NCBI GenBank assembly: GCA_030950485.1
Contig: JAUZRK010000014.1
Span: 2,431-66,430 of the forward strand
DNA from: Candidatus Dojkabacteria bacterium
GTDB taxonomy: Bacteria; Patescibacteriota; Dojkabacteria; J137
Length of the DNA stretch: 64,000 nucleotides
Direction: 5' to 3'
The notes under the pieces were generated by a model, which was not told the DNA's origin, ran no database searches, and was given only the letters and a program-made list of their open reading frames with translations. This document shows, in pieces, positions 35,581-40,824 of this stretch. Position numbers and translations under genes: made by a program. How positions within the stretch are numbered: position 1 is the first letter of the stretch; each line of letters opens with the position of its first letter.

Positions 35581-36570
35581 ATGAATGATGATTTAGGTTT
35601 TCAGCTCTTACTTTACATTAAGGATAATGGAGCACATACAGCTACAGAACTATCAGAGGTTTTTAATATAAAGAGGACTACTCTTCTCTATCAGCTTAAT
35701 TTTCTAATTGAAAAAAAACTAGTCGATAAAGAAAAAAAAGGAAGAGAAGTATATTTTAAAATTAATTCATTAAGCTCAATAGAGAGTTACTTTAGAGACA
35801 AAATTGATATTCTAAACAGTCAGTTAGATAAACTTGTACTAGATACTACTAAACTAAATCGAAAGCTTGTAGTTATTGCTGATGATTTTGGACTTACAAA
35901 ATCCATTAGTGATGGATGCCTTGTTGCTTATAACTCAGGTATTATAAGTGAATTAGCTCTTATTCTAAACTCTAATGGAACAAAATATGCTTTGGATAAA
36001 ATTATAGAAGCAAATATTAGAAACGTTGGACTAAATTTTGAGTATGAGTTTGCAAATAATGAACATATATCGCAAACCGAAGCTATTAATTCTATAAAAT
36101 CAGGTATCTTTAATTTTCAAAAAGATGTTGGTTTTAAGCCATCAAGTATTTATCTAGCCAAAGAGCTCTATTTAAGGTTAGAGATATTGGAGGAAATTGC
36201 TAATTATTGTAAAGAAAACTCAATTTCTTTACGTTTACCAAAAATTATCAATCAAAATAAAAGTGAAAATTACGCCGCAGAGGTAATGATGAACCGAGTC
36301 GGCGTTAAAACTACAGACTTTAATACAACATTCGAAAAGACATTCTCTATTTATAAACTTAAAAATAATATTCTTAACATTCTAAACAATATTGAAGAAA
36401 ATAAGAGTCTAGAAATAAATCTATCTCCAGGCTTTATCGACAGAGAAACCGTGGAATTAGTAGATCAGATTATAGATAGAGGAAAACATTTAGTAATATC
36501 TATTGATAATGAATTAGAAGAAGAGATTAAGAAATTAAATTACCAGATTGTATCATTTAACCAGCTATGA
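35581..36570 (+). CDS. wHTH regulator domain fused to YdjC/ChbG-like carbohydrate deacetylase domain
   Basis: N-terminal HTH (TELSEVFNIKRTTLLYQLNFL) and YdjC-type motif VVIADDFGLTKSISDG. Confidence 0.5.
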   Translation: MNDDLGFQLLLYIKDNGAHTATELSEVFNIKRTTLLYQLNFLIEKKLVDKEKKGREVYFKINSLSSIESYFRDKIDILNSQLDKLVLDTTKLNRKLVVIADDFGLTKSISDGCLVAYNSGIISELALILNSNGTKYALDKIIEANIRNVGLNFEYEFANNEHISQTEAINSIKSGIFNFQKDVGFKPSSIYLAKELYLRLEILEEIANYCKENSISLRLPKIINQNKSENYAAEVMMNRVGVKTTDFNTTFEKTFSIYKLKNNILNILNNIEENKSLEINLSPGFIDRETVELVDQIIDRGKHLVISIDNELEEEIKKLNYQIVSFNQL

Positions 36571-37379
36571 AGAAGAAAGTTATAGTAACAGCCTCCGATT
36601 TTGGGCTTACTAAGCCTGTTAATGAAGGAATTAAATGGATAATACACAATCCCAATAATATCCTTACTGAACTTTCTCTAGTAGTTAACGCTCCTGGAAG
36701 TGAACACGCAGCTGAAATGGCAAAAACTTTGAACGTAAATGTCGGAACCTGTTTTAACTTAACTAGATTTAAGCCAATTAGCGATCAAGTTGCTACTCTT
36801 ACAAAGGAGAATGGAGAATTTTACAAACCTGATTTAGGTAAGTGGGATTTTAGTTTTATAGAAAAATTTAAAGAAGAAGAAATTAAAAGAGAATTAGAAG
36901 CGCAGTATAAATGGTTCTTAGAAAAAGTTAATAAAAAGCCAACGTCTATAAGATTTAGGAAAAATGAAAATGGAGATCCTAAAATCTTAAAACCTGTTGC
37001 CGAGATCGCTAAACGAGAAGATATAGCAATGGCAACTCCAGTTTGGATATGGCGGGAGAACTTCTCTGCACATAACTTTGCTAAAGAAAAAGGGGTTAAA
37101 CTTACTGATCATGTAATTATTACCTCACCCGGATGGGCGCATGAAAATCATTCAATAGCGGTCGATATTACAAAGACTGATAAGCTTGTAGAAACTATAA
37201 ATCAAAATAATGGTATTAGCGAGGTAGTTATTATTGCTGGCTTTTTAGATAAAGAGCTATTAGAAATTACAAAGACACTAAATTGGCAGAGATTGATTCC
37301 AATTGAAGTAATAAAAAACGGCGAGCTTAGTAGCAGACTCAAAGATGAGTTTGAACTGATAAGTTTTAGTGATTTATGA
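36567..37379 (+). CDS. YdjC/ChbG-like carbohydrate deacetylase
   Basis: VIVTASDFGLTKPVNEGI motif. 4-nt ATGA overlap with the upstream paralogue. Confidence 0.5.
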   Translation: MKKKVIVTASDFGLTKPVNEGIKWIIHNPNNILTELSLVVNAPGSEHAAEMAKTLNVNVGTCFNLTRFKPISDQVATLTKENGEFYKPDLGKWDFSFIEKFKEEEIKRELEAQYKWFLEKVNKKPTSIRFRKNENGDPKILKPVAEIAKREDIAMATPVWIWRENFSAHNFAKEKGVKLTDHVIITSPGWAHENHSIAVDITKTDKLVETINQNNGISEVVIIAGFLDKELLEITKTLNWQRLIPIEVIKNGELSSRLKDEFELISFSDL

Positions 37380-37401: not shown

Positions 37402-38646
37402 TTAGCTCTTTTCCTCCCAAACCTTACAAATCTCAACAACCGTCCTCATAGAATCAAACATATCCTGCAAAGAAATATATTCCTGCTTACCATGATAATT
37501 TTGTTGCCCAGTGAAAAGCTTAGGGCAAGGCAAACCTTTATGCGTTAAAGTAGCGCCATCAGTTCCCCCTCGAATTGGTTTCGTAATAACTTCTATGCCC
37601 AATCTGTCCATCGCCTCTTTAGCATAATCTACAACCTTAATATGATTTTTGATTACTTCATTCATACTTTTATATTGCTCATTAAACTCAACCTCAAATT
37701 TAGCTCCAAATTGATCAGCAGCTTTTTTAGCAAGTGTATTAATAATTTCCTTGTAATCATTTATCTTCTCTAATTCAAAATCTCTAAGAATAAATGTAAT
37801 ACTCGCCTCTTCATTTCCTGAATTCATAGTTATTGGATGAATGAAACCTTTATACCCATCTGTATGTTCAGGTGAATGTTCATCAGGTAGAAGTGTCACA
37901 AAATATGAAAGAGCTTTTATTGCATTAATCATTTTATCCTTAGCGTAACCAGGGTGAATAGCCTTTCCAAAAAATTTAACTTTAGCACCGTAAGCATTAA
38001 AATTTTCAAACTCTATTTCGCCCTTTACGGATCCATCTAAAGTATATCCATAATCAGCTCCGAACTTCTCTACATCAAAAAACTTAGTACCAGTTCCAAC
38101 TTCCTCATCAGGATTAAATAAAACTTTTATATCACCATGTTTAATTTCCGGATGATTAATTAAATAATCAATTGCAGACATTACTACAGCCACTCCAGAT
38201 TTATCATCTGCTCCAAGCAATGTTGTACCATCAGTAGTGACAATATCGTGTCCTACTAGATTCTTTAGATATGGATTGCTTTCTACTTTGATCACCTGAG
38301 TAGCATCATTTATAAGCTGAATATCTGAGCCATCATAATTCTCTATAAGTTGAGGATTTACTTTTTTACCTGTAACTTCAGTTGCAGTGTCGACATGAGA
38401 TACGAAAGCTAAAACTGGAACATTCTTTTCTGTGTTAGATTTTAGTATCGCAGTAACATACCCATATTCATCTATTTTTGTATCATCTAAACCAAGTTCA
38501 TTTAACTCATTTTTCAAATCGTTCAATAATACAAGCTCCTTTTCAGTACTTGGGTAAGTTTCAGAGTCTGGATCAGACTGCGTATCGTATTTTACGTATT
38601 TGAGAAACCTTGTTTTGATTTTGTCGAGATACTTTTTATTATCCAT
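37402..38646 (-). CDS. pepT: Peptidase T-like M20 metallopeptidase (tripeptide aminopeptidase)
   Basis: N-terminus MDNKKYLDKIKTRFLKYVKYDTQSDPDS...PSTEKE matches PepT. M20 metal-binding His/Asp/Glu pattern (VSHVDT, DDKSG, EE). Confidence 0.75.
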   Translation of the reverse strand: MDNKKYLDKIKTRFLKYVKYDTQSDPDSETYPSTEKELVLLNDLKNELNELGLDDTKIDEYGYVTAILKSNTEKNVPVLAFVSHVDTATEVTGKKVNPQLIENYDGSDIQLINDATQVIKVESNPYLKNLVGHDIVTTDGTTLLGADDKSGVAVVMSAIDYLINHPEIKHGDIKVLFNPDEEVGTGTKFFDVEKFGADYGYTLDGSVKGEIEFENFNAYGAKVKFFGKAIHPGYAKDKMINAIKALSYFVTLLPDEHSPEHTDGYKGFIHPITMNSGNEEASITFILRDFELEKINDYKEIINTLAKKAADQFGAKFEVEFNEQYKSMNEVIKNHIKVVDYAKEAMDRLGIEVITKPIRGGTDGATLTHKGLPCPKLFTGQQNYHGKQEYISLQDMFDSMRTVVEICKVWEEKS

Positions 38647-38683
38647 TTGAATTTCTTTAAGTATTTAAATTTTATCAGATTTT

Positions 38684-38754
38684 ATTATAGTTAGAGTTTA
38701 TATATTTCTCTTGGTTTGTGTCCCTCCCCCAATCACTCCCAGGAGGGGAGAAAC
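38684..38754. repeat. GC-rich hairpin repeat B copy 1, including a degraded copy of the DUF559 5' end
   Basis: ~80% identical to 39423-39495. Core tttgtgtccctcccc..ctcccaggagggg. Rev-comp of 38684-38712 reads EKYINSNYNK, a decayed copy of the DUF559 N-terminus MKYKNSKYNK. Confidence 0.6.
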
Positions 38755-38824
38755 AAAATAATTCATTTTTATTTAGTTTTATTTACTTAATTATTATATA
38801 TTTAATTTTAAACTAATATGCTTG

Positions 38825-38869
38825 CTCTGCCTTATCCCTCTCCTGAGAGAGTAATAGTGTGAGGTATTC
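38825..38869. repeat. GC-rich hairpin repeat A copy 1
   Basis: ctctgccttatccctctcctgagagagtaatagtgtgagg shares the ctctgc(c)ttat(t)ccctctcctg(r)gaga... core with copies at 38945 and 39631. Confidence 0.55.
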
Positions 38870-38944
38870 TCAGGGCCAAGACTAATACAATTTTGGAGAC
38901 CTCCCTATCGATAGACGTCTAATTCAAGAGTAGGAAGAATTCCA

Positions 38945-38990
38945 CTCTGCTTATTCCCTCTCCTGGGAGAGGGTTAGGGTGAGGGACTAC
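38945..38990. repeat. GC-rich hairpin repeat A copy 2 (perfect 7-bp GC stem ccctctc/gagaggg)
   Basis: ctctgcttattccctctcctgggagagggttagggtgagggactac. Confidence 0.55.
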
Positions 38991-39065
38991 ACAAGCTTTA
39001 ATCATACGCTAATCTTTAAGCAAACCAACCCAACATATATTTAGGTGAGGAACTAGTGCTACATA

Positions 39066-39449
39066 TCACTCACTTACACCATCCCAAACTCCGTCTATAA
39101 AATTCTTAATAGACTGTAAAACATCATCTACAGAGCTGACAACTTGAAACTCTGTAAATCTAAGCATCTTATAACCAATTTCACTTAGTCTTTTCTCCCT
39201 TCCTCTATCATATTCATATTTATTATCATCATGACTGGCTCCATCTATTTCTATAATAAAATTATACTCCTTACAGAAAAAATCAACTATATACTTATCT
39301 ATGGCCCTCTGTCTATAAAATTTAAAGTTATTCAACTGCCTATTTCGTAATTTACTCCATAACTTAATTTCTGCTGGTGTTTGTTTTTGTCTATTTTTTC
39401 TTGAAAATATTTTTAGATTTTTATTATACTTAGAGTTTTTATATTTCAT
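39066..39449 (-). CDS. DUF559 (Vsr-like) endonuclease-domain protein, small selfish-element-type ORF
   Basis: 127 aa. IVDFFCKEYNFIIEIDGASHDDNKYEYDRGREKRLSEIGYKMLRF matches the DUF559 fold. Embedded in a GC-rich repeat island. Confidence 0.55.
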   Translation of the reverse strand: MKYKNSKYNKNLKIFSRKNRQKQTPAEIKLWSKLRNRQLNNFKFYRQRAIDKYIVDFFCKEYNFIIEIDGASHDDNKYEYDRGREKRLSEIGYKMLRFTEFQVVSSVDDVLQSIKNFIDGVWDGVSE

Positions 39450-39495
39450 TTAGTTTGTGTCCCTCCCCTAACCCCTCCCAGGAGGGGGATAAAAC
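39423..39495. repeat. GC-rich hairpin repeat B copy 2, forming the 5' UTR and start of the DUF559 gene
   Basis: agtttgtgtccctcccctaacccctcccaggagggggataaaac. On the coding (minus) strand the GGAGGG lies ~13 nt upstream of the ATG inside a GC hairpin. Confidence 0.6.
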
Positions 39496-39630
39496 AAGAA
39501 CATATTTTTAGTTTTTAATATTCAATAATCTCTCCGAGCACTAATAATCAATAATAACATTATATTTGTTGAGTCTTAATTACATAAGAAACGCTAGTGA
39601 CCCTCACAGTAGAAATCTAAACTAACTTCC

Positions 39631-39674
39631 TGCATTGTTTTCCCTCTCCTGAGAGGGCAAGGGTAAGGGACTAG
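39631..39674. repeat. GC-rich hairpin repeat A copy 3
   Basis: tgcattgttttccctctcctgagagggcaagggtaagggactag. Confidence 0.55.
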
Positions 39675-39697
39675 TGGTTTAGCCTTAGATCAAACCG

Positions 39698-40450
39698 CTA
39701 AGCTTCTACAAACAAAAGCCCATACATAATTCCTATACCAATTAGTACAAATAAGACTTGTAGTAAGTTCTTTTTAAAATCAGATTCGTGTTTTATTTCA
39801 GGAAATAAATCAGCAATAGCAATGTAAAGAAAAGAACCAGCTGCAAAAGCTAGTAAGTAATTAGCACTTCCCTCTAATTTTGAATCAGAGAAGTAAGCAA
39901 GTAAGGCGCCTACAATAGCAAAGAGTGCCGATACAAAATTAAAAAATACTGCTTTAGATCTACTAAATCCAGAGTGCACTAAAACGCCGAAATCACCTAT
40001 CTCCTGTGGAATTTCATGCGCTATTACAGCTATTGTTGTCGCAATACCTATTTCTGTACTTGCGGTAAAGCTCGCAGCGATTATCATTCCGTCAATAAAA
40101 TTATGAAGTCCGTCAGCTATTAAATTATTGACTGCTACAGGGTGAGGATGATCTGTTGTAGTTTCATTATGGCAGTGATGCCAATGTAACAACTTCTCTA
40201 AACTTAAAAACGAAACTATTCCAAATAGCATCATCAACGCAATCTCCTTTTTAAATTCTCCGTCAGTCTCTACTATTTCTGGAATAATATGAAAAAATAC
40301 ATCTCCTATTAAACTTCCAGCAGCTAAACTAACTAAAAAAATTATTATTTTATTTAAAAACTTATGGGAAAGAGATAAGGTTAATGCTCCAACGAGAGAT
40401 ATAGAGCTAACTATAAATGTCACTAAGATTATTTGAAGAAATGTACCCAT
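39698..40450 (-). CDS. zupT: ZIP-family metal transporter (ZupT-like)
   Basis: HEIPQEIGDFGVLVHSGFS signature, His-rich loop HWHHCHNETTTDHPHP, ~8 TM helices. Confidence 0.75.
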   Translation of the reverse strand: MGTFLQIILVTFIVSSISLVGALTLSLSHKFLNKIIIFLVSLAAGSLIGDVFFHIIPEIVETDGEFKKEIALMMLFGIVSFLSLEKLLHWHHCHNETTTDHPHPVAVNNLIADGLHNFIDGMIIAASFTASTEIGIATTIAVIAHEIPQEIGDFGVLVHSGFSRSKAVFFNFVSALFAIVGALLAYFSDSKLEGSANYLLAFAAGSFLYIAIADLFPEIKHESDFKKNLLQVLFVLIGIGIMYGLLFVEA

Positions 40451-40471: not shown

Positions 40472-40783
40472 TTATGAACAATCGGAACATATTCCTGTTA
40501 AATTAGTAACTTCAGAAAAATTTTTTATTTTAATCTTCTTTTGTATAGTTTCAACATGACCACAAGATTCACATATCAAGTGTTGATGATCATCAAGTGA
40601 TGAAAGTTCATAAAAAGTTTCTTTAGAATTTGTAAAAACCTCTTTAATAATATTATCTCTCTCTAATCTTTTTAAGTTTCGATAAATAACTGACTTTTCA
40701 ATTTCGGGCAAGATATCTATTAAGTTATTTAAAGAGAGTAAGTGATTATTATTAAATTGTTTTAGTATTTTATCTTTATTCAT
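40472..40783 (-). CDS. Fur-family metalloregulator, probably Zur (adjacent to zupT). Start taken at ATG 40781-40783.
   Basis: Short Fur-like protein with wHTH (SVIYRNLKRLERDNIIKEV), an HQH..CESCGH metal site and a C-terminal CSDC. Confidence 0.55.
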   Translation of the reverse strand: MNKDKILKQFNNNHLLSLNNLIDILPEIEKSVIYRNLKRLERDNIIKEVFTNSKETFYELSSLDDHQHLICESCGHVETIQKKIKIKNFSEVTNLTGICSDCS

Positions 40784-40786
40784 ATG

Positions 40787-40824
40787 CAAGTTAGTTGCAT
40801 TTTAGCTCAACCGCAACTAAGTTG
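40787..40824. promoter_or_regulatory. 12-bp near-perfect inverted repeat (caagttagttgc N14 gcaactaagttg) in the divergent promoter region; candidate operator
   Basis: Read directly, 11/12 complementarity. Overlaps a -35 TTGTCA (40822-27) / -10 TATAAT (40846-51) promoter for the + strand gene and lies 4 nt upstream of the fur-like ATG. Confidence 0.45.

Follow-up and report, generated by a model that had tools for sequence, protein, structure and literature searches.

What is a GC-rich island of about 1 kb doing between two host genes of a bacterium whose DNA is otherwise poor in GC? The question arises in a genome of the Dojkabacteria (candidate phyla radiation), where a peptidase T gene (pepT) and a ZIP-family zinc transporter gene frame a small DUF559 gene surrounded by repeats (Table 1). 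The window, meaning the whole stretch of 64,000 nucleotides that was analysed, has a GC content of 31%, and within the island this rises to as much as 43% in segments of 200 nt. In the nearest relative (L083) ZIP and pepT are only 50 nt apart, with no DUF559 gene and no GC-rich repeat, and therefore the 1,051-nt island is an insertion. The empty site is defined by this one relative, which is fairly distant (69% identity for the pepT protein, its best homologue, and 61% for the ZIP protein), and the synteny is seen at a divergence too great for the junctions to be aligned. A preliminary description of this DNA, made from the sequence alone, had pointed to a GC-rich island in a low-GC genome, which is confirmed, and had proposed comparison with relatives lacking it.

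The island is thus an insertion polymorphism, and it contains one intact DUF559 gene inside inverted repeats, solo or decayed repeats, and a truncated duplicate of its own left end. It does not look like a transposon or MITE with terminal inverted repeats. Domain searches of the island gave no transposase domain of the DDE, HUH or serine/tyrosine type. There was also no sign of a target-site duplication, the outer ends being without direct repeats on inspection.

Table 1. Features of the island and its flanking genes (positions are those of the window).
Feature	Position	Strand	Evidence or remark
pepT, peptidase T, M20 family, flanking host gene	37402..38646	-	Pfam Peptidase_M20 + M20_dimer; homologues named peptidase T
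Whole island	38647..39697	.	1,051-nt gap, pepT start codon to ZIP stop codon
Truncated duplicate of cassette 5' end	38667..38780	-	blastn and repeat search
B1, third block intact (GGGGGAGGGAC), purine arm mutated (GGAGTGA)	38714..38756	-	nhmmer E 1e-9; alignment
A1, largely decayed, GAGAGAG-TAA-TAGTGTGAGGT	38831..38873	+	nhmmer E 6.6e-8; 80% identity to A2 over 40 nt
A2, intact, inverted, downstream of gene	38951..38992	+	nhmmer E 9.4e-10; exact 32-mer
Sixth, partial copy TTAGGTGAGGAACTAGTG, third block and 3' flank only	39041..39058	+	repeat search, 87% identity to A3 flank
Intact DUF559 gene, 127 aa, Vsr / EDxHD-type PD-(D/E)XK nuclease fold	39066..39449	-	PF04480
B2, intact, upstream of gene, third block toward gene	39453..39495	-	nhmmer E 3.6e-9; alignment
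A3, 6-bp stem CCCTCT/AGAGGG, third block GGGTAAGGG	39636..39674	+	nhmmer E 4.7e-9; alignment
ZIP-family zinc transporter gene, flanking host gene	39698..40450	-	Pfam Zip E 1e-49

The repeats form a single family of about 35-40 nt that occurs in both orientations, with five copies and a sixth fragment. The element consists of a pyrimidine arm, a complementary purine arm with which it forms a hairpin, and a third block, rich in G, in mirror symmetry with the purine arm. A2 reads CCCTCTCC-TG-GGAGAGGG-TTA-GGGTGAGGG-AC and B2 reads CCCCTCC-TG-GGAGGGG-TTA-GGGGAGGG-AC, its third block stopping 9 nt before the ATG of the DUF559 gene. The hairpin arms are kept in A2, B2 and A3 and decayed in A1 and B1, and A3, right behind the ZIP stop codon, forms a divergent pair with B2. 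A profile built from the five copies gave only 5 matches in the 64 kb (nhmmer, E 1e-8 to 1e-10), at the places first described; the next-best matches (E of at least 0.04) were self-overlaps. Every copy found in the window therefore sits within the 1-kb island, and for the 32-mer of A2 0 matches are expected in shuffles.

Other parts of the preliminary description need revision. It had divided the copies into two families, A and B, but the reverse-complemented B aligns with A, both in pairwise repeat comparison and in the profile. A and B make up a single family whose members lie in opposite orientations, and the DUF559 gene is therefore flanked by inverted copies. Five is not the total either, with the partial copy lying 8 nt past the DUF559 stop codon, which is probably the decayed original right end of the cassette. 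The stem that had been given for B (ctcccc...ggggag) pairs the third block with the first arm; the conserved hairpin is CCCCTCC/GGAGGGG in B and CCCTCTCC/GGAGAGGG in A. The order A-B-DUF559 then A-A-B-remnant on the coding strand stands as described. The remnant had been taken for a decayed second DUF559 copy before pepT, and a duplicate of the 5' end is indeed present: the stretch 39515-39405 matches 38780-38667 in an alignment of 116 columns with 81% identity (blastn, E 1.5e-21). It comprises 20 nt of AT-rich upstream sequence, B1 and only the first 15 DUF559 codons, and ends 20 nt before the pepT ATG. No second DUF559 domain or decayed body was found in the island even at very relaxed thresholds, and the domain of the intact gene is alone in the window.

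Computed Watson-Crick folding of single copies of the repeat gives the hairpin, at folding energies no better than shuffles (z -0.9 to +1.1). Folding energy adds nothing here, and the significance of the repeat comes from its repetition and from comparison with other loci. The DUF559 gene has a GC content of 0.27-0.31, like the host, while the repeats that flank it remain GC-rich and the distal copies decay, which we count as a point for selection on the repeat.

BoxC/PIT repeats have been known since 1992-2000 and occur in large numbers in E. coli, in cyanobacteria and in many bacteria besides. They form triplexes in vitro and mark unstable loci. The BoxC / PIT (potential intrastrand triplex) repeats reportedly go back to Bergler in 1992 and to Hoyne and colleagues in 2000 and 2002, and we know of no function or partner protein that has been assigned to them. 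Judged by its sequence, the repeat of the island is a BoxC / PIT / TMECO-type "intrastrand triplex" element, as a close variant that departs from the strict TMECO pattern. The preliminary description did not name the repeat as this published element. Positions 38965-38985 of A2 are the exact E. coli HPG1/TMECO G-block, a 21-mer (GGGAGAGGGTTAGGGTGAGGG) that is found in identical form in two earlier studies (Holder et al., 2015, PMC4666352; Kaplan et al., 2016, PMC5100583), the second of which named the same sequence HPG1, a 'G-quadruplex-hairpin-duplex switch'. The strict TMECO pattern is CCCTCNCCC-N3-6-GGGNGAGGG-N3-GGGNGAGGG (Holder et al., 2015, PMC4666352). Compared with it, both G blocks and the TTA loop of A2 are exact, and the C arm reads CCCTCTCC with a T behind it; the first loop, in turn, is tighter (2-4 nt, with an 8-bp stem), and A2 therefore does not match CCCTCNCCC-N3-6-GGGNGAGGG. 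Like the published elements, the island copies are intergenic, occur in both orientations and in inverted pairs, and are associated with local rearrangement, the motif having been linked with deletions and rearrangements in its vicinity (Holder et al., 2015, PMC4666352). They differ in their host, TMECO being reported from Proteobacteria whereas the island lies in a 31% GC bacterium of the candidate phyla radiation. The published work on BoxC/PIT/TMECO describes no associated gene or mobile element, and the link to DUF559 is added here.

The third block shows mirror (triplex-type) covariation that follows the purine-triplex rule. The triads of this rule are G*G-C, A*A-T and T*A-T, and in A2 the mirror, with its short second loop, reads GGGAGAGGG-TTA-GGGTGAGGG. 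Among the motifs that flank DUF559 genes, the third block fits better in the mirror register in 192 and in the direct register in 23, and a G of the purine arm is matched by G in 93% of cases, an A by T in 47% and by A in 40% (T or A 87%). A third block that repeats the purine arm directly, and so would form an alternative Watson-Crick hairpin, was rejected on this count. The repeat could thus fold as a hairpin or as an intrastrand purine-motif triplex in DNA. A G-quadruplex was rejected as a conserved feature: A2 and B2 have four G3 tracts, but among 286 distinct oriented motifs just 29 do.

The Rfam family whalefall-1 is listed as a metagenomic sRNA with no assigned function. No Rfam family passed its gathering score, whether in the window or in nine related loci, and the sub-threshold matches were to whalefall-1 (RF01762) only; the window copies score 17.9 and 16.3 bits, where 37 is the gathering score. 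The repeat shares with it the first hairpin, CUCUCC/GGAGAG, and the 3' tail AGGGUGAGGAC. Unlike whalefall-1, the window copies are without the 24-nt second stem-loop; other DUF559-flanking variants have a nested second hairpin at that position.

DUF559 is a very large nuclease family with no assigned function, and about 19,800 clusters at 50% identity match the protein of the island. That the open reading frame at 39066-39449 belongs to this family, as first proposed, is clear from the match to PF04480 (E 3e-32, 111.1 bits against a cut-off of 20.6). All 16 family-invariant columns are kept, the residues named being R20, E27, W31, F44, R46, Q47, D56, F57, E67, D69, G70, H73, D81 and R97. Profile searches matched PDB 3HRL (E 1.5e-32) and the homing endonuclease I-Bth0305I (3R3P, E 5e-6). 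The AlphaFold model (pLDDT 84.8) gave Foldseek matches that include 3HRL, 3R3P (probability 1.0, E 1.6e-4, TM-score 0.80 normalised to the target) and 1VSR (probability 1.0). The protein is related to I-Bth0305I and to Vsr, a kinship also drawn from published work (PMC3424549; PMC9403480).

The repeat and the gene are found together well beyond this island. Of 80 DUF559 loci sampled across many phyla, 73 (91%) have a pyrimidine-arm hairpin no more than 250 nt upstream of the gene and 60 have one no more than 250 nt downstream, and 247 of 380 hairpins fall within 300 nt of a DUF559 domain, i.e. 3.0 per kb compared with 0.11 per kb elsewhere, an enrichment of about 27-fold. Distant Vsr-like phage genes, used as a control, have a hairpin nearby in 1 case of 56. 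The copies are oriented: the nearest upstream copy points toward the gene at 46 loci compared with 9, the nearest downstream copy is inverted at 29 compared with 11, and 42 of 63 adjacent pairs that enclose the gene are convergent; convergent pairs without a gene were seen in 23 cases. The distance to the start codon varies (10-90% range 17-105 nt), and the repeat often directly abuts start and stop codons. The nearest homologues of the island gene have the same gene-plus-repeat layout in unrelated gene neighbourhoods.

The repeat variants also go with the gene. The stem core is identical upstream and downstream in 70% of loci, compared with 17% for shuffled partners (maximum 36%), and dispersed or orphan copies in the same locus carry the variant of the gene in 39% compared with 14% expected. 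The sharing of stem cores between related proteins is confounded by taxonomy. In the four genomes with two paralogues (L030, L066, L074 and L062), each paralogue has its own repeat variant, and has it on both sides. The association of DUF559 with the repeat is thus pan-bacterial, with inverted orientation and paralogue-specific variants. We found no paper that links DUF559, ycjD or COG2852 to repeats in the literature searched. The association is one-way: a scan of metagenomes with the pattern GGGA-N1-2-GGGTTAGGG-N1-2-AGGG gave 129 motif copies in 120 contigs, 0 of them near DUF559, and the motif was rejected as a predictor of the gene. A few of the 129 matches are eukaryotic telomere-like TTAGGG arrays.

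These comparisons favour the idea, raised in the preliminary description, of a small selfish element inserted in tandem with one copy decaying, which fits the empty site in the relative, the inverted repeats, the truncated 5' copy, the decayed repeats and the recurrence at other loci. The two outcomes that had been named as speaking against such ideas were a motif with no tie to DUF559 elsewhere and an ordinary conserved intergenic region. Neither describes what was found, as the motif is tied to DUF559 in other genomes and the region is no conserved spacer.

E. coli offers a familiar case, where the DUF559 gene ycjD directly adjoins BoxC elements as well as an incomplete duplicate of its 3' end. 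Genomes with ycjD have a median of 16 other BoxC places and those without it 3, a difference confounded by phylogroup, and E. coli O157 genomes without ycjD still have about 12. One locus is occupied either by the gene or by the eef operon (PMC12817139). Across 3,377 E. coli genomes ycjD lies at a single locus, and there is therefore no sign of recent transposition in E. coli; multi-locus copies of a ycjD cassette were rejected on the same evidence. A BoxC remnant at the fabI locus of eef-positive E. coli was also rejected, the match inspected being an unrelated copy between zntA and tusA.

The recurrence of the same pairing across many phyla suggests that nuclease and repeat work as a selfish unit. 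On balance we lean towards a selfish partnership of the two, comparable to REP/RAYT or to a free-standing homing endonuclease, in which the mechanism is the part that we infer, namely an action of the nuclease on the flanking repeats and a mobility caused by such action. The DUF559 protein would recognise its cognate repeat, by DNA structure or by sequence, and nick or cut it, and the break would be repaired through recombination with another copy of the repeat. Such repair would copy the gene into repeat-bearing sites and so sustain the repeat family, and it could leave tandem copies, truncated ends and deletions behind. To our knowledge a PD-(D/E)XK nuclease alone cannot carry out strand transfer, and therefore any mobility would have to use host recombination. 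A bolder form of the proposal, possible in our view yet doubtful, is that DUF559 is the missing enzymatic partner of BoxC/PIT/TMECO in a pan-bacterial symbiosis parallel to REP/RAYT. It would then be a Vsr-like nuclease recognising hairpin or triplex DNA, which spreads or maintains the repeat together with its own gene via break-induced recombination and thereby causes the reported instability.

As in REP/RAYT, a single nuclease-type gene lies inside inverted copies of a short structured repeat (in the island B2 upstream and A2, inverted, downstream), copies of the repeat far outnumber the gene and are dispersed through the genome (in the 64-kb window they are confined to the island), repeat variants are specific to the copy of the enzyme, and the gene is present or absent among related genomes. 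The enzymes differ, RAYTs being HUH/Y1 (IS200/IS605-type) transposases and DUF559 a PD-(D/E)XK Vsr-like nuclease by Pfam and structure. So do the repeats, as REPs are simple imperfect palindromes that carry a conserved GTAG-type head and lack the design of a hairpin plus a mirror third block. Like free-standing homing endonuclease genes, the DUF559 gene is small and selfish-looking, is present or absent at a fixed site and has truncated copies beside the live one. It shares homology and the fold of the catalytic domain with I-Bth0305I, but not the extra DNA-binding domains of that enzyme, and unlike I-Bth0305I it lies outside any intron or intein. The target of I-Bth0305I is a unique gene sequence, whereas the presumed target of DUF559 is a repeated structured element.

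The repeats could instead be hot spots of integration, with DUF559 a passenger, perhaps a repair or defence nuclease, that does not act on them. BoxC/PIT would then be unstable, recombination-prone intergenic elements in or between which small horizontally moving genes land. This would agree with the published link of the motif to rearrangements and deletions (Holder et al., 2015, PMC4666352), with the persistence of BoxC in E. coli lineages that lack ycjD, and with the many motif copies, the majority, that are solitary beside ordinary housekeeping genes. A Caulobacter DUF559 protein, moreover, acts as a Vsr-like factor with a tie to cytosine methylation (PMC12907096). We nevertheless consider a passenger unlikely. 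No other gene family recurs among the 75 ORFs that neighbour orphan copies, the paralogue-specific variant stands on both sides with the third block toward the gene, and the abutment of start and stop codons, the 27-fold enrichment and the upstream hairpin at 91% of loci all argue against a passenger.

Alternatively, the repeats might act at the RNA level, with an upstream hairpin in the 5' UTR by which a Shine-Dalgarno-like GGAGG is masked or presented and a downstream copy that serves as terminator or 3' mRNA stabiliser. The preliminary description had likewise suggested hairpin-controlled translation, and the placing of B2 is suggestive: its third block (GGGGAGGG) lies 9 nt and the GGAGG within it about 10 nt before the ATG, and a promoter-like site at 39579-39551 would put B2 in the 5' UTR. 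The hairpin forms whichever the orientation, the whalefall-1 'RNA' of Rfam has the same hairpin and a G-rich tail, and Vsr-like folds include RNA-binding RAP-like proteins. Set against this, the upstream and downstream copies are inverted relative to each other, the spacing to the start codon differs widely between loci, no T-tract terminator was predicted, and promoter-like sites are as numerous as in shuffles. Folding of the B 5' UTR, which had been proposed as a check, lends no support either, at a z-score of -0.65 that is no better than shuffles. The third block conforms to the mirror (purine-triplex) rule rather than to the Watson-Crick alternative, and RNA, on literature that Holder et al. 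(2015, PMC4666352) cite, cannot form a purine triplex. Neither promoter nor terminator activity was found by Hoyne and Maher (2002), as their work is summarised second-hand. With its GGAGG, this one gene could conceivably be under hairpin-controlled translation; a role of the repeats at the RNA level seems to us quite improbable.

That the gene is an ordinary Vsr-type mismatch-repair gene with unrelated GC-rich hairpins nearby is contradicted by the comparative data and very improbable: homologues are annotated 'very-short-patch-repair endonuclease' and Foldseek matches 1VSR, but the Pfam match is to DUF559 and the Vsr family (PF03852) was not reported for the protein at E <= 0.01, E. coli Vsr being of the same PD-(D/E)XK clan and a different Pfam family; unlike E. 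coli Vsr the gene stands without a Dcm-type methyltransferase beside it, the genes up to 10 kb away in both directions encoding no cytosine methyltransferase and containing no DNA methylase domain; T:G nicking is not established for DUF559; and the association with the repeat at 80 loci is far above chance and above the phage control.

Should the selfish partnership of nuclease and repeat be wrong, the island is still a clear case of a known repeat family in a candidate-phyla-radiation genome together with a mobile nuclease gene. If it is right, two long-standing puzzles, the BoxC/PIT repeats and the DUF559 family, would explain each other, and bacterial genomes would hold a second class of enzyme-repeat partnership. 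DUF559 would also become a candidate structure-specific nuclease for non-B DNA, and the many spurious 'PSPxGEG'-type tails on annotated proteins would be explained. The association is specific, oriented and matched between paralogues, and it leads to a directly testable hypothesis, that YcjD of E. coli K-12 acts on BoxC.

The host, a member of Candidatus Dojkabacteria within the candidate phyla radiation, is represented by a metagenome-assembled genome, and GC content is 31% across the window. It rises to as much as 0.43 within the 1,051-nt gap between the stop codon of the ZIP zinc-transporter gene and the start codon of pepT, where the sole substantial open reading frame encodes a DUF559 protein. 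The five GC-rich modules listed in the preliminary description (A1 to A3, B1 and B2) are all present, and a profile of them recovers exactly these five in the 64-kb window (E-values 1e-8 to 1e-10), with no occurrence of the A2 32-mer expected in shuffles. Their division into families A and B does not hold, as B, once reverse-complemented, aligns with A over its full length, and a sixth, partial copy (the fragment) was missing from that list. The shared design is a hairpin, with a pyrimidine and a purine arm, followed by a G-rich third block. On the coding strand the order is ZIP, <A3, >B2, DUF559, <fragment, <A2, <A1, >B1, first 15 codons, pepT, where > denotes a third block pointing in the direction of the gene.

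Features of the ZIP-pepT region and its surroundings
Feature	Position	Strand	Remarks
Two adjacent YdjC-family genes	35581-37379	plus	4-nt overlap; convergent with pepT; unrelated to the finding
pepT	37402-38646	minus	
Truncated cassette end with spacer to pepT	38647-38780		B1, 15 codons and AT-rich upstream 20 nt
DUF805b match	38911-38936		Weak, 12.5 bits; inside the island
Place compared with whalefall-1	38954-38986	plus	
Repeat fragment (sixth copy)	39041-39058		8 nt past DUF559 stop codon
DUF559 gene	39066-39449	minus	127 aa; PF04480, E 3e-32
Place compared with whalefall-1	39459-39490	minus	
ZIP zinc-transporter gene	39698-40450	minus	
Fur-family gene	40472-40789		Upstream of ZIP

A decayed second DUF559 gene had also been proposed. 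What exists is a duplicate of the 5' end of the cassette (116 columns, 81% identity, E 1.5e-21) that includes the first 15 codons, and no further DUF559 remnant is detectable within the island. With 20 nt between it and the pepT ATG, this truncated end is now a possible source of the pepT promoter or 5' UTR. Fragment aside, A2 and B2 are the copies closest to the gene and are intact, and A1 and, in B1, the purine arm show drift towards A/T. GC content is host-like in the DUF559 coding sequence (0.27-0.31) while the flanking repeats are still GC-rich, which points to selection acting on the repeats as such.

Among available relatives the closest is a Logan contig (L083), with pepT and ZIP 69% and 61% identical to those of the window. 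In L083 (237-2431) the two genes lie on the same strand 50 nt apart, and therefore probably form one operon, and their spacer contains neither a DUF559 gene nor a GC-rich repeat. The island is an insertion, which separates ZIP and pepT in the window, although the divergence of L083 is too great to allow alignment of the junctions.

A2 reads TTAT-CCCTCTCC-TG-GGAGAGGG-TTA-GGGTGAGGG-AC and B2 reads CCCCTCC-TG-GGAGGGG-TTA-GGGGAGGG-AC. A full-text literature search with the A2 G-block matched two papers and identified the repeat. BoxC of Escherichia coli was first seen in 1992 beside envM/fabI, was renamed PIT by Hoyne and Maher in 2000, and was described by Holder et al. (2015) as the intrastrand purine-motif triplex repeat TMECO, CCCTCNCCC-N3-6-GGGNGAGGG-N3-GGGNGAGGG (PMC4666352). 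MG1655 has 23 copies and 262 proteobacterial genomes together have 3,610, and related GC-rich motifs are abundant in cyanobacteria; copies are intergenic, in either orientation and at times in inverted pairs, are tied to local rearrangements and have no associated gene class or mobile element (PMC4666352). The identical 21-mer GGGAGAGGGTTAGGGTGAGGG has been described as a G-quadruplex/hairpin switch (Kaplan et al., 2016; PMC5100583). In neither paper is there mention of an endonuclease, of DUF559 or of ycjD. A2 reproduces the two G blocks and the TTA loop exactly, but has a tighter first loop than TMECO, of which it is therefore a close variant.

The third block mirrors the purine arm: the mirror register fits better in 192 motifs and the direct register in 23, with 73 ties. 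With the register fixed from G positions only, purine-arm G lies opposite third-block G in 93% of cases, and purine-arm A opposite T in 47% and opposite A in 40%. By base identity, these G-G, A-T and A-A matches are the triads predicted for a purine-motif triplex. This finding speaks against an attenuator-type alternative Watson-Crick hairpin, and canonical G-quadruplex potential, present in A2 and B2, is found in just 10% of variants. Several lineages carry a nested hairpin between purine arm and third block, which a fold-back third strand could accommodate.

The association of gene and repeat extends well beyond this host. Eighty loci encoding the closest DUF559 relatives were taken from one-genome-per-species contigs of Cyanobacteria, Bacteroidota, Desulfobacterota, Planctomycetota, Nitrospirota, several candidate-phyla-radiation groups and others. 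A perfect hairpin with an all-pyrimidine 5' arm occurs within 250 nt upstream of DUF559 in 73 of them and within 250 nt downstream in 60. Within the 1.27 Mb covered, 247 of 380 hairpins lie within 300 nt of a DUF559 domain (3.0 per kb vs 0.11 per kb elsewhere); near distant Vsr-like genes in viral contigs, used as a control, a hairpin was found in 1/56. Of the copies closest to the gene, the upstream one turns its third block towards it in 46 loci vs 9, and the downstream one is in inverted orientation in 29 vs 11; median spacing is 40 nt ahead of the start codon and 30 nt past the stop codon. Among adjacent oriented pairs enclosing a gene, 42/63 are convergent. The window protein's two closest homologues (L287 and L289) share the layout '< > gene <' in unrelated gene neighbourhoods.

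Stem sequences vary by lineage (CCCCC, CCCCTC, CCCCTCC, CCTCCC, CCCTCTCC and others), and the same stem core occurs on both sides of the gene in 70% of loci, compared to 17% for shuffled partners (maximum 36%). Where a genome has two paralogues (L030, L066, L074, L062), each has its own repeat variant on both sides, e.g. CCCCTCT..GGGGTGTGT and CCCCCTT..GGGGGATGA in L030. Orphan copies in the locus of a DUF559 gene match the variant of that gene in 39% of cases vs 14% expected. A metagenome scan for the G-block pattern gave 129 matches on 120 contigs, mostly complete three-block motifs in GC-rich bacteria, none of them near a DUF559 gene. Orphan copies adjoin assorted housekeeping genes. The relation is one-way: nearly every DUF559 gene is flanked by repeats, and most repeats are far from such a gene. 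REP sequences and RAYT genes show a likewise one-way pattern.

Tandem arrays of the motif lie beside or near some DUF559 genes (L061 5530-5894 and 35-221; L003 10384-10717; L064 9754-9963; L041 4841-5505), with seven copies at a ~65-nt period, four at 100 nt and six at 39 nt, and one array of alternating orientation. Tandem DUF559 cassettes, one frameshifted, and a partial second domain were also seen (L015 9368-10339; L064 9998-10699; protein P0196), as were proteins in which the DUF559 domain occurs two or three times; all of this would fit repeated insertion beside an existing copy. At L013 4922-4986 (minus strand), an above-threshold DUF805 RNA motif (RF03081, 65 bits) adjoins a divergent orphan pair of the repeat.

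In E. coli K-12 the DUF559 gene ycjD, whose product is 36% identical to the window protein, adjoins fabI, the site of the original description of BoxC. A BoxC-like hairpin overlaps its stop codon (L082, NC_000913.3 1351190-1351830), followed by a degenerate duplicate of its own 3' end (last ~60 nt) and a canonical BoxC, an arrangement that parallels the truncated 5' duplicate in the window. The cassette occupies one locus only, in 3,377/5,426 complete E. coli genomes, and ycjD and the eefRABCD efflux operon replace each other in the fabI-sapF gap (2026 paper, PMC12817139). Among 60 genomes sampled evenly from the ranking, the median number of other BoxC places was 16 in ycjD-positive and 3 in ycjD-negative genomes, a comparison confounded by phylogroup (1-3 in B2 strains, 12 in O157 strains) and taken as supporting evidence only. 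These counts agree with the 29 copies reported in strain 55989 vs 1 in IHE3034 (PMC4666352).

The DUF559 protein keeps every family-invariant residue in an alignment with 26 homologues, including the E67-x-D69-G-x-x-H73...D81 core. Its nearest solved structure is 3HRL of Neisseria gonorrhoeae, of unknown function (E 1.5e-32), then the catalytic domain of the EDxHD homing endonuclease I-Bth0305I (E 5e-6); the AlphaFold model (pLDDT 84.8) matches 3HRL, I-Bth0305I and Vsr in Foldseek. Surveys group DUF559 with Vsr and I-Bth0305I (PMC3424549, PMC9403480). The nearest homologues are just 55% identical and scattered across many phyla, and ~19,800 clusters (50% identity) match. The model (mce2bc0ed40e2) also resembles mitoribosomal protein domains of Toxoplasma and Tetrahymena, probably RAP-like, a likeness suggesting that Vsr-like folds can serve as RNA binders too. 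Many annotated DUF559 proteins (P0006, P0008, P0017, P0020, P0045, P0054) carry terminal tails at either end, like 'PTPSPSEEGN', which are gene-calling artefacts translated from the flanking repeat.

The island represents the insertion of a DUF559 cassette with inverted BoxC/PIT-type repeats as its bounds, accompanied by extra copies and a truncated neighbour. It is one case of an association between gene and repeat that is pan-bacterial, oriented and matched in variant. We lean towards a selfish partnership, REP/RAYT-like or homing-endonuclease-like, in which the nuclease acts on its cognate repeats. DUF559 would nick the cognate repeat, structure- or sequence-specifically, and recombinational repair would then copy gene and repeats, yielding tandem copies, truncations and deletions. 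It is unlikely that the repeats are recombination hot spots with the gene as passenger, a reading weakened by the paralogue-specific ends and the lack of other recurrent cargo. RNA-level regulatory or stabilising hairpins, akin to the translational control suggested in the preliminary description, seem more doubtful still, given the inverted arrangement of copies, the mirror rule, the variable repeat-gene spacing and published negative promoter and terminator tests. That DUF559 is an ordinary Vsr repair gene, for all the likeness in fold, is very improbable. The repeat and the protein family were each already known; the association is the added part, not found in the searchable literature (open, as distinct from subscription-only, papers), and both enzyme class and repeat architecture differ from those of known enzyme-repeat partnerships.

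The Rfam model whalefall-1 has a nested hairpin in the same position as the repeat lineages that carry one between purine arm and third block. Its consensus comprises a CUCUCC/GGAGAG hairpin, a 24-nt second stem-loop and the tail AGGGUGAGGAC, and was compared with two places in the window and with L038, L012, L025, L036, L050, L065, L066 and L208-L210. It seems to be a lineage variant of the three-block repeat in which the second loop contains a nested hairpin, and the whalefall-1 'sRNAs' would then probably be DNA repeats of the three-block class.
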